64,000 bases of DNA from Escherichia coli (lineage in GTDB: Bacteria; Pseudomonadota; Gammaproteobacteria; Enterobacterales; Enterobacteriaceae), in the NCBI RefSeq assembly GCF_003019035.1, contig NZ_CP027447.1; one strand, given 5' to 3'. Of the stretch, positions 6,154 to 7,388 are shown in pieces. The notes under the pieces were generated by a model. It searched no databases and was not told the DNA's origin. It saw only the letters and a list, made by a program, of their open reading frames with translations. Positions within the stretch are counted from its first letter, which is position 1. Every line of letters starts with the position of its first letter. The position numbers and the translations under genes were made by a program.

Positions 6154-7086
6154 ATGGATGCACCGAGTACCACACCGCATGATGCGGTATTTAAACAATT
6201 TTTAATGCATGCGGAAACGGCTCGCGACTTTCTGGATATTCATTTGCCAGCGGAGCTACGCGAACTGTGTGACCTCGACACGCTGCATCTTGAGTCGGGG
6301 AGTTTTATTGAGGAAAGCCTGAAAGGACACAGCACGGACGTACTCTATTCCGTGCAAATGCAGGGCAATCCCGGTTATTTGCATGTGGTGATTGAACATC
6401 AAAGCAAGCCGGATAAGAAAATGACCTTTCGCATGATGCGCTATGCCATTGCCGCCATGCACCGGCATCTGGAGGCGGATCACGATAAGCTGCCGCTGGT
6501 GGTGCCGATTCTGTTTTATCAGGGCGAGGCCACACCTTATCCGCTCTCAATGTGCTGGTTTGATATGTTTTACTCGCCGGAGCTGGCGCGACGCGTTTAC
6601 AACAACCCTTTCCCGCTGGTGGATATCACCATCACACCGGATGACGAAATCATGCAACATCGGCGGATTGCGATTCTCGAACTACTGCAAAAACATATTC
6701 GCCAGCGCGACTTAATGTTATTGCTGGAGCAACTGGTCACGCTGATTGACGAAGGGTACACTAGCGGAAGTCAGTTAGTTGCCATGCAAAACTATATGCT
6801 GCAACGCGGTCATACTGAACAAGCGGATTTGTTTTATGGTGTGCTGAGAGACAGGGAAACGGGAGGGGAGTCTATGATGACGCTGGCGCAGTGGTTTGAA
6901 GAGAGGGGAAGACAGGAGGAAAGGCAGGAGGTAAGACAGGAGGTAAGACAGGAGGTAATACAAGAGGTTAGACAGGAAGTAAGACAGGAATTCGCCCTGC
7001 GTTTTCTGAGTAAAGGGATGTCTCGGGAAGACGTTGCAGAGATGGCAAATTTACCTCTTGCTGAGGTTGATAAGCTGATTAGCTAA
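6154..7086 (+). CDS. rpnC: recombination-promoting nuclease RpnC (YhgA-like / transposase_31 family)
   Basis: 310-aa ORF MDAPSTTPHDAVFKQFLMHAETARDFLDIHLPAELREL...; N-terminal region with conserved acidic residues typical of Rpn/YhgA proteins; C-terminal tail with (RQEV)n repeats and ...FLSKGMSREDVAEMANLPLAEVDKLIS. Position between panD and panC matches yadD/rpnC in K-12. Confidence 0.85.
   Translation: MDAPSTTPHDAVFKQFLMHAETARDFLDIHLPAELRELCDLDTLHLESGSFIEESLKGHSTDVLYSVQMQGNPGYLHVVIEHQSKPDKKMTFRMMRYAIAAMHRHLEADHDKLPLVVPILFYQGEATPYPLSMCWFDMFYSPELARRVYNNPFPLVDITITPDDEIMQHRRIAILELLQKHIRQRDLMLLLEQLVTLIDEGYTSGSQLVAMQNYMLQRGHTEQADLFYGVLRDRETGGESMMTLAQWFEERGRQEERQEVRQEVRQEVIQEVRQEVRQEFALRFLSKGMSREDVAEMANLPLAEVDKLIS
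6874..7086 (+). CDS. candidate internally initiated small protein (RpnS-like C-terminal domain of RpnC, same frame)
   Basis: Strong SD gggagggg (6861..6868) lies 5-7 nt upstream of in-frame ATGATG (6874..6879) inside rpnC, giving a 70-aa product MMTLAQWFEERGRQEE...KLIS. Matches the intragenic-antitoxin arrangement reported for Rpn genes (established knowledge), not verified here. Confidence 0.45.
   Translation: MMTLAQWFEERGRQEERQEVRQEVRQEVIQEVRQEVRQEFALRFLSKGMSREDVAEMANLPLAEVDKLIS
6910..6993 (+). repeat. 7 tandem 12-bp units (consensus agacaggaggta) encoding (RQEV)n in the RpnC tail
   Basis: Read directly: aga cag gag gaa / agg cag gag gta / aga cag gag gta / aga cag gag gta / ata caa gag gtt / aga cag gaa gta / aga cag gaa ttc. 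Confidence 0.9.
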
Positions 7087-7154
7087 GTTATCTGCATTAT
7101 CAGTTATAGCCAGATAATTGTTATTGTTAACTGACCAGATAATCAAGGGAACAT

Positions 7155-7388
7155 ATGGAAATAAAGACACGGAGAGAAACCAGGCAGACGTTAGCGCAGT
7201 GGTTTGAAGAGAAGGGATTTCAGAAGGCGTATCAGGAGGCGTTTCAGAAGGGATATCAAGAGGAACTCCAGAAGGTAAGACAGGAATTCGCCCAGCGTTT
7301 TCTAAGTAAAGGGATGTCTCGGGAAGACGTTGCAGAGGTGACAACTTTACCTCTTACAGAGATTGATAAGCTAATTAACTCTAACTAA
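7155..7388 (+). CDS. free-standing small ORF paralogous to the RpnC C-terminal (RpnS-like) domain
   Basis: 77-aa ORF MEIKTRRETRQTLAQWFEEKGFQKAYQEAFQKGYQEELQKVRQEFAQRFLSKGMSREDVAEVTTLPLTEIDKLINSN; SD-like aaggga 5 nt upstream of ATG; about 90% nucleotide identity to the last ~110 nt of rpnC and to the segment around its internal start (gcgcagtggtttgaagaga). Confidence 0.55.
   Translation: MEIKTRRETRQTLAQWFEEKGFQKAYQEAFQKGYQEELQKVRQEFAQRFLSKGMSREDVAEVTTLPLTEIDKLINSN
7218..7289 (+). repeat. 6 degenerate 12-bp periodic units encoding FQKA-YQEA-FQKG-YQEE-LQKV-RQEF
   Basis: ttt cag aag gcg / tat cag gag gcg / ttt cag aag gga / tat caa gag gaa / ctc cag aag gta / aga cag gaa ttc; same 4-codon periodicity as the rpnC array but different sequence. 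Confidence 0.8.

Follow-up and report, generated by a model that had tools for sequence, protein, structure and literature searches.

The region between panD and panC in the stretch of Escherichia coli DNA analyzed here, 64 kb in length and referred to below as the window, is very probably an RpnC toxin-antitoxin (antiphage) locus in which the number of 12-bp repeat units sets specificity, and in which a small downstream open reading frame, rpnC-Ss, is a duplicated copy of the antitoxin (S) domain. According to this reading, a 12-bp slippage tract would reset the specificity of a defence nuclease and of its in-gene antitoxin together. For rpnC itself the finding is already known in detail, including the repeat, its location in a helix, its role in the specificity between long (L) and short (S) forms, and the existence of an Ss gene with repeats. 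The present work adds population-level confirmation for alleles of the RQEV type, based on loci that share an identical background and differ by a single unit, and it also adds that Ss and the resident RpnC vary in repeat number independently of each other.

The published system was described by Zhong, Jiang, Hickman, ... Dyda, Laub, and Storz (PNAS 2023; PMC10400941), who found that Rpn proteins are toxic PD-(D/E)XK endonucleases (RpnL). The C-terminal domain of RpnL is translated from an internal start as a separate, identical protein, RpnS, which binds and blocks RpnL. In K-12, translation of RpnC-S was seen by ribosome profiling and immunoblotting, and its block of the toxic long form was seen with an SOS reporter (PMC10400941). 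In the crystal structure of RpnA-S (7TH0), two three-helix bundles dimerize via the long first helix, and in RpnC, one extra KGIE repeat on S or LS kills neutralization unless both partners have it (PMC10400941, Fig. 4D). The same authors reported variation of the 4-aa repeat in RpnS and RpnSs and found rpnCSs 3' of rpnC in some strains, with loss via deletion or fusion (PMC10400941, Fig. 2I). For phage defence, the evidence comes from RpnP2, a plasmid paralogue, and not from chromosomal RpnC, and the mechanism of repeat gain and loss was left open, with RpnL itself suggested as a possible contributor (PMC10400941). Our search for follow-up literature beyond the 2023 paper and its commentary found nothing relevant.

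The rpnC locus and its two repeat arrays

Positions 6800..7400 of the window are 100% identical to E. coli strain SCU-301, where they are annotated as Rpn family, and a match to the rpnC tail occurs in 5,424 of 5,426 complete E. coli genomes. The following features make up the locus.

5500..5880, minus strand: panD, flanking rpnC on one side
6154..7086, plus strand: rpnC (yadD), full-length RpnC-L, 310 aa (ORF list; TIGR01784; RefSeq annotation of the identical SCU-301 locus)
6172..6774, plus strand: PD-(D/E)XK nuclease domain (Pfam Transposase_31 / YhgA-like), RpnC residues 7-207 (PF04754, E = 9.1e-87)
6862..6866, plus strand: Shine-Dalgarno (SD) sequence GGAGG, 7 nt upstream of the internal ATG (read from the sequence)
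6874..7086, plus strand: rpnC-S, in-frame internally initiated ORF, 70 aa (MMTLAQWFEERG...), predicted antitoxin (translation expected from K-12)
6910..6993, plus strand: array 1, seven 12-bp units, in frame in rpnC (TRF score, 120)
7155..7388, plus strand: rpnC-Ss, free-standing paralogue of the RpnC tail, 77 aa (ORF list; tail homology; TIGR01784 C-terminal match)
7218..7289, plus strand: array 2, six units of 12-bp period in rpnC-Ss (TRF)
7449..7479, strand unassigned: GC-rich hairpin in the rpnC-Ss/panC intergenic region, putatively terminator-like on the minus strand (consensus scan)
7484..8335, minus strand: panC, the other flank, convergent to rpnC-Ss

A location between panD and panC is that of the RpnC orthologue (yadD), and the RefSeq label is rpnC. 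Profile searches agree with this assignment: the PF04754 alignment covers model positions 1-201 of 203, the protein scores 272.4 bits against the NCBIfam profile TIGR01784 ("Rpn family recombination-promoting nuclease"; cutoff, 52.1), and the RpnA equivalog profile spans RpnC residues 5-297, tail included. Pfam returned nothing significant in the RpnC tail. An Rfam scan of 5800..7600 found no RNA family, and no sigma-70-like promoter turned up in a consensus scan of the plus strand, either inside rpnC or 5' of Ss; the internal promoter reported from dRNA-seq was not located by this consensus scan. PADLOC 2.0, which has no Rpn model in its set, gave no match to RpnC. Its sole match was a weak one, of Ss to the C terminus of RmrA (7e-5).

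Both arrays lie in frame at the coordinates, and with the units, that the preliminary description of this DNA had assigned to them. Array 1 reads AGACAGGAGGAA / AGGCAGGAGGTA / AGACAGGAGGTA / AGACAGGAGGTA / ATACAAGAGGTT / AGACAGGAAGTA / AGACAGGAATTC, which translates to RQEE RQEV RQEV RQEV IQEV RQEV RQEF, and TRF places it at 6909..6989 with a period of 12, 6.8 copies, 85% matches, and a score of 120. The repeats had been called perfect, but among the seven units in rpnC just one pair is identical. Array 2 translates to FQKA YQEA FQKG YQEE LQKV RQEF and is weaker than array 1 in DNA when fitted at period 12 (4.1 copies, 75% matches; score, 49). One duplication of 24 bp, or two units, gives a better fit (7218..7263, 1.9 copies, 86%; score, 71), such that the first four units represent this duplication and are followed by two further units of the same period. 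Three TRF arrays score at least 50 in the whole window, two of them being the rpnC and rpnC-Ss arrays, and both of these exceed chance. The surrounding tails of rpnC and Ss are a diverged direct duplication (6914-7084 versus 7210-7380, 78% DNA identity over 171 nt), with an alignment that is clear from the TLAQWFEE codons to the stop codon.

Compared with the published E. coli RpnC-L, RpnC-S, and RpnC-Ss, the window is alike in gene, in locus (panD-rpnC-panC), in internal start, in the variable 4-aa repeat of helix 1, and in having Ss 3' of the gene, as a subset of strains does; only the allele differs. In K-12, the RpnC array is of the KGIE type, its linker is 18 aa long, and Ss is absent, whereas the window has an RQEV-type array of seven units with a 30-aa linker, followed by an Ss with six units of the FQKA/YQEA type. 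The linker, here and below, is the stretch measured between QWFEE and [AV][QL]R[FL]L.

Repeat number across E. coli strains

Repeat number was read in 86 E. coli loci, comprising 29 from complete genomes and 57 from metagenome contigs. The sample is not random: the genome loci were taken down two similarity rankings, and the metagenome contigs were found with the 30-mer that opens the small ORF without variation and so are anchored on Ss. Metagenome assemblies may collapse or chimerize repeats, but the complete-genome pairs L022/L026 and L021/L023, described below, agree with them.

The outcome that the preliminary description had set against its own proposal, an invariant repeat number with point substitutions only, is not what these 86 loci contain. 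The rpnC array ranges from 2 to 9 units (82 loci), with RpnC linkers of 10, 14, 18, 22, 26, 30, 34, and 38 aa, all of which equal 2 modulo 4, and it comes in the unit flavors KGIE/KGME (K-12, 18-aa linker) and RQEV (the window, 30-aa linker). The Ss array ranges from 3 to 9 units, with linkers from 14 to 38 aa (72 loci). One family of Ss alleles forms the allelic series KGFQKAYQEAYQEV(RQEV)nRQEF, with n from 0 to 5, and another series contains FQKG once, twice, or three times.

Pairs of nearly identical loci separate the repeat from its surroundings. Three pairs have 0 mismatches in 1,330 aligned bp and are one 12-bp unit apart, in the small ORF for L022/L026 and in rpnC for both L037/L058 and L037/L041. 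Two more are one unit apart in the small ORF with 1 mismatch (L021/L023 in 1,330 aligned bp and L031/L049 in 1,300), and L030/L054, with 4 mismatches, are 24 bp apart in the small ORF. When the window allele is compared with L008 and with L022, which carry two different 26-aa RpnC alleles, different units have been lost; 24 bp of array 2 (TTTCAGAAGGCGTATCAGGAGGCG) are missing in the L004 and L008 alleles. A frameshift in either tail was found at only 2 of the 86 loci (L017, in rpnC within the array, and L038, in the Ss of a metagenome contig), and the other alleles differ by whole units, with the exception of one in-frame 6-bp deletion. Copy-number change occurs in 12-bp steps, in frame, and independently of flanking SNPs. 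All three properties had been anticipated from the single sequence, and they hold for pairs with 0 to 1 mismatches over 1.3 kb that stand one unit apart.

Selection on the rest of the gene was compared by pN/pS. The nuclease domain is under purifying selection, because its pN/pS is 0.07 (42 distinct alleles); the value for panC is 0.03. Evolution of the tails beyond the repeats is fast, with a pN/pS of 0.43 in RpnC and 0.56 in Ss, in agreement with the description "highly variable C-terminal domains."

The free-standing copy and its relation to the resident RpnC

The rpnC-Ss gene has its own start, an N-terminal extension (MEIKTRRETRQ), and a C-terminal match to TIGR01784 (2e-8). It is found in about 1,545 of 5,426 complete E. 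coli genomes, with K-12 and O157 among the strains without it, and the Ss allele of the window is rare, being matched at ≥99% identity by only 3 of the 5,426. Pfam searches with the 77-aa protein gave no match at E ≤ 0.001, DUF4351 (PF14261) included. Annotation of such genes as DUF4351 holds "in some species" and so is not a strict requirement (PMC10400941).

A different explanation for this ORF, and one that we consider improbable, is that it is a decaying fragment left by a partial duplication and no working gene. Some RefSeq genomes list it as a partial pseudogene ("incomplete; missing N-terminus"), about 72% of complete genomes are without it, one metagenome copy is frameshifted (L038), and both the missing Pfam match and the pN/pS of 0.56 outside the repeat would fit decay. 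However, each of the 21 Ss-carrying genome loci has an intact and identical ORF, ATG, and 5' block of 30 nt, Ss is readable in 72 of the 78 loci with the 5' block, and the Ss array goes on expanding in frame. The pN/pS of Ss (0.56) was also not counted as raised over the value for the functional RpnC tail (0.43). In addition, the analogous RpnE-Ss protein (YpaA) was detected in K-12 by tagging (PMC10400941). With RpnE and YpaA, too, a free-standing duplicate of the S domain of an Rpn gene lies behind that gene, and each Ss copy groups with the gene 5' of it (PMC10400941); the RpnE/YpaA pair is an independent duplication, and nothing of the RpnE locus is present in the window.

The repeat number of rpnC-Ss does not follow that of the RpnC beside it. 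In the 69 loci with both arrays readable, representing 34 distinct haplotypes, L and Ss unit numbers show a Spearman correlation of -0.13 (p = 0.45), and identical RpnC proteins are paired with different Ss linkers (26 and 16 aa for WP_000339917.1; 20 and 16 aa for WP_000339897.1). About half of the Ss copies, with linkers of 16, 20, and 24 aa, carry a 6-bp deletion by the array (RQEF to RL) that removes 2 residues, which puts their linkers at lengths that no observed RpnC allele can share. By the published equal-repeat rule, most Ss proteins should not neutralize the neighboring RpnC. The published account notes fusions and loss of Ss, but no relation of Ss repeat number to the resident gene (PMC10400941).

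We also considered whether equal L and Ss lengths are avoided. Equal lengths occur in 1 of the 34 haplotypes, compared with 2.3 expected from random pairing, a difference that is not significant (P = 0.28), and we claim independence alone.

Some loci join parts of the two genes. In L014, a fusion, the rpnC array is combined with an Ss-type 3' end and there is no Ss; in L076, the Ss 5' end is joined to a K-12-type tail; and C-terminal endings are common to some RpnC and Ss alleles. One speculative proposal, which we advance with considerable doubt, is that rpnC-Ss is not a redundant cognate antitoxin but might be a stored alternative tail that is swapped into rpnC by recombination, or else a non-cognate modulator or decoy. 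The uncoupled repeat number of Ss sharpens the question of what Ss does, without answering it.

The internal start, the first helix, and a model for specificity

Two segments at the internal start are identical in 29 of 29 genome loci, an 18-mer at 6850-6867 (GACAGGGAAACGGGAGGG) that covers the SD and a second segment at 6869-6898 that spans the internal start ATGATG. From K-12 rpnC (PMC10400941, Fig. 2D and 2G), we infer that the SD and ATG 6874 function in the window allele. The repeats begin at RpnC-S residue 13, inside the range of 8-20 given by Zhong et al. (PMC10400941).

An AF2 model of RpnC-S built on 17 alleles predicts helices at residues 4-46, 51-57, and 62-69, with the repeats inside the one continuous helix 4-46 (mean pLDDT, 74.8; 55-79 across the repeat). 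The AF2 prediction for full-length RpnC from a single sequence had a pLDDT of 42.9, too low to be of use. In RpnA-S (7TH0), 4-aa insertions fall in the long first helix, and the RpnC-S model has the same order of helices. The RpnA-S structure was not retrieved by PDB sequence searches with full-length RpnC, RpnC-S, or a 17-sequence profile, which returned chance-level or HTH-like matches (TrpR, sigma factors, and a designed "CAP repeat" protein). Foldseek comparison of the RpnC-S model to the PDB gave no match at E < 0.5, and 7TH0 was absent among the matches listed, the best of which were weak helix-turn-helix domains (KorB, DeoR, and resolvase; E > 0.5). A likeness in fold between RpnC-S and RpnA-S is suggested by family-level homology and by the AF2 helix pattern.

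These observations bear on what the repeat does. The preliminary description saw it as a variable charged helical linker between nuclease and tail. Its helical character is borne out by the AF2 model, but a passive linker is not, since the repeat is in helix 1 of the C-terminal domain; in crystallized RpnA-S, this helix forms the dimer interface (PMC10400941). That the repeat tunes an interaction is likewise supported by experiment (PMC10400941, Fig. 4D), with other partners than those proposed: because internal initiation also yields the tail as a separate protein, the tuning would concern the binding of toxin (L) to antitoxin (S), not that of nuclease to tail. Diversification under phage pressure, a further idea of the preliminary description, is in line with published work, in which defence was shown for RpnP2 only (PMC10400941). 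What had been missed was the separate production of the tail from the internal start and the nature of the small ORF as a second antitoxin-like copy; the earlier interpretation was essentially right.

In the model that we favor, RpnC-L would be a PD-(D/E)XK DNA endonuclease that is toxic if unopposed (toxicity from PMC10400941). Ribosomes would also start at ATG 6874 and produce the 70-aa C-terminal domain alone, RpnC-S (internal translation from PMC10400941), which would pair with the identical domain of RpnC-L via the long first helix and thereby block the nuclease (PMC10400941). Each 12-bp unit encodes 4 residues, three polar or charged and one hydrophobic, that would extend the first helix, and neutralization would take place only between partners of equal unit number (PMC10400941). 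Gain or loss of a unit would alter L and S at once, because both are read from the same DNA, and would create a new specificity that is still self-compatible. Units would be gained or lost one or two at a time, probably by replication slippage between near-identical neighbors, and rpnC-Ss would represent a duplicated, free-standing S domain with its own array varying independently. The anatomy of the locus, its family membership, the helical placement of the repeat, and its polymorphism on otherwise identical backgrounds are demonstrated here. In terms of helix geometry, one 4-residue unit adds ~6 Å and ~40° of rotation to helix 1, which would explain why only partners of equal length keep the ends of the interface in register.

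Repeat arrays need not have any such role, and these could instead be neutral stretches of low complexity that slip readily in a linker tolerant of change, with a copy number that drifts without functional effect. A 12-bp unit preserves the frame by itself, so in-frame alleles need no selection, and the lack of correlation between RpnC and Ss copy numbers given above (Spearman, -0.13; p = 0.45) would be compatible with drift. Yet all unit types keep one hydrophobic residue per four (RQEV, KGIE, FQKG, and YQEA), the repeats fall within a predicted continuous helix, and one added unit switches the neutralization specificity of RpnC experimentally (PMC10400941, Fig. 4D), all of which makes drift very unlikely as an explanation. 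Tandem repeats within the coding region of a defence-type gene, together with the one genome that has an rpnC frameshift inside the array (L017), might suggest phase variation that turns the gene on and off, as at contingency loci in Neisseria or Haemophilus, but this is scarcely credible, as slippage of a 12-bp unit never shifts the frame and, apart from frameshifts at 2 of the 86 loci, the alleles vary by whole units and by one in-frame 6-bp deletion.

A repeat that sets the specificity of a toxin for its own antitoxin has a parallel in the "TAEL" repeats of HsdS in EcoR124I and EcoR124II, as drawn by Zhong et al. (PMC10400941). There also, the unit is 12 bp, or 4 residues of helix, and its copy number (2 or 3) changes specificity, in that case of a type I restriction enzyme acting in defence; that repeat spaces two DNA-recognition domains, whereas the RpnC repeat would set the pairing of toxin and antitoxin proteins. 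RpnC has in common with type II toxin-antitoxin systems that a protein antitoxin neutralizes a protein toxin and that the antitoxin is small, helical, and HTH-like. Unlike in those systems, the toxin gene itself contains, in its own reading frame, the sequence of the antitoxin, which matches the C-terminal domain of the toxin exactly.

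Rarity of the window allele pair, and apparent rpnC-Ss fusions elsewhere

The rpnC tail and its free-standing paralogue in the window are set out as follows:
6154..7086 (+), rpnC, the RpnC nuclease gene, with a four-residue repeat array in its tail at 6910..6993
7155..7388 (+), rpnC-Ss (Ss below), a 77-aa ORF with its own array at 7218..7289

When window positions 6154..7400 were compared with other E. coli genomes, identity over 6800..7400 was mostly just 80-95%. Only two genomes reached at least 99% identity over 6800..7400, and only three did so over the Ss region (7090..7400), which, on this comparison of sequences, makes the window's combination of rpnC and Ss alleles a rare one in E. 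coli.

Two sampled loci, L014 (NZ_CP086618.1) and L013 (O157:H7 TR01), encode RpnC proteins with Ss-like C-terminal endings (..TEVDKLINSN and ..AEVDKIITSN), and neither has an Ss gene downstream of rpnC. These alleles look like rpnC-Ss fusions from which the intervening sequence has been deleted; fusions of rpnC with Ss have already been mentioned (PMC10400941).

A metagenome contig (OKZB01000164.1; L076, positions 1-700) has a mosaic structure. Its first portion carries an rpnC 3' end of the window type (..AEVDKLIS*), then the intergenic region and the 5' end of Ss, and from GCGCAGTGGTTTGAAGAG on, the linker that holds the repeats, the tail and panC are all of the K-12 type, with 97.5% identity to the K-12-type locus L016. 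Either recombination inside TLAQWFEE, a conserved block, produced the mosaic, or the contig is a chimera of the metagenome assembly.

Deletions and frameshifts at the arrays

In about half of the Ss genes in the sample, among them those of L003-L009, a 6-bp deletion (AGGAAT) where the array ends on its 3' side converts RQEF to RL. The deletion leaves a linker 16, 20 or 24 aa long, a length that is out of register with the linkers of all RpnC alleles seen; it is absent from the window Ss (array region 7218..7265). Frameshifts in the tails are rare, occurring within the KGIE array of rpnC in L017 (NZ_CP080070.1), where the gene is annotated as a pseudogene, and immediately past the array in the Ss gene of L038.

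A weak match to RmrA and a third array

In PADLOC, the Ss protein weakly matched the C terminus of RmrA (E = 7e-5), over positions 284-336 out of 357, probably through a common helix-turn-helix-like segment.

Elsewhere, the window holds a third tandem array, with an 18-bp period and 2.7 copies:
24267..24314, tandem array
24172..26721, 849-aa ORF containing it

This array codes for an acidic stretch close to the N terminus of the 849-aa product, and the ORF resembles mrcB, the gene for penicillin-binding protein 1B.
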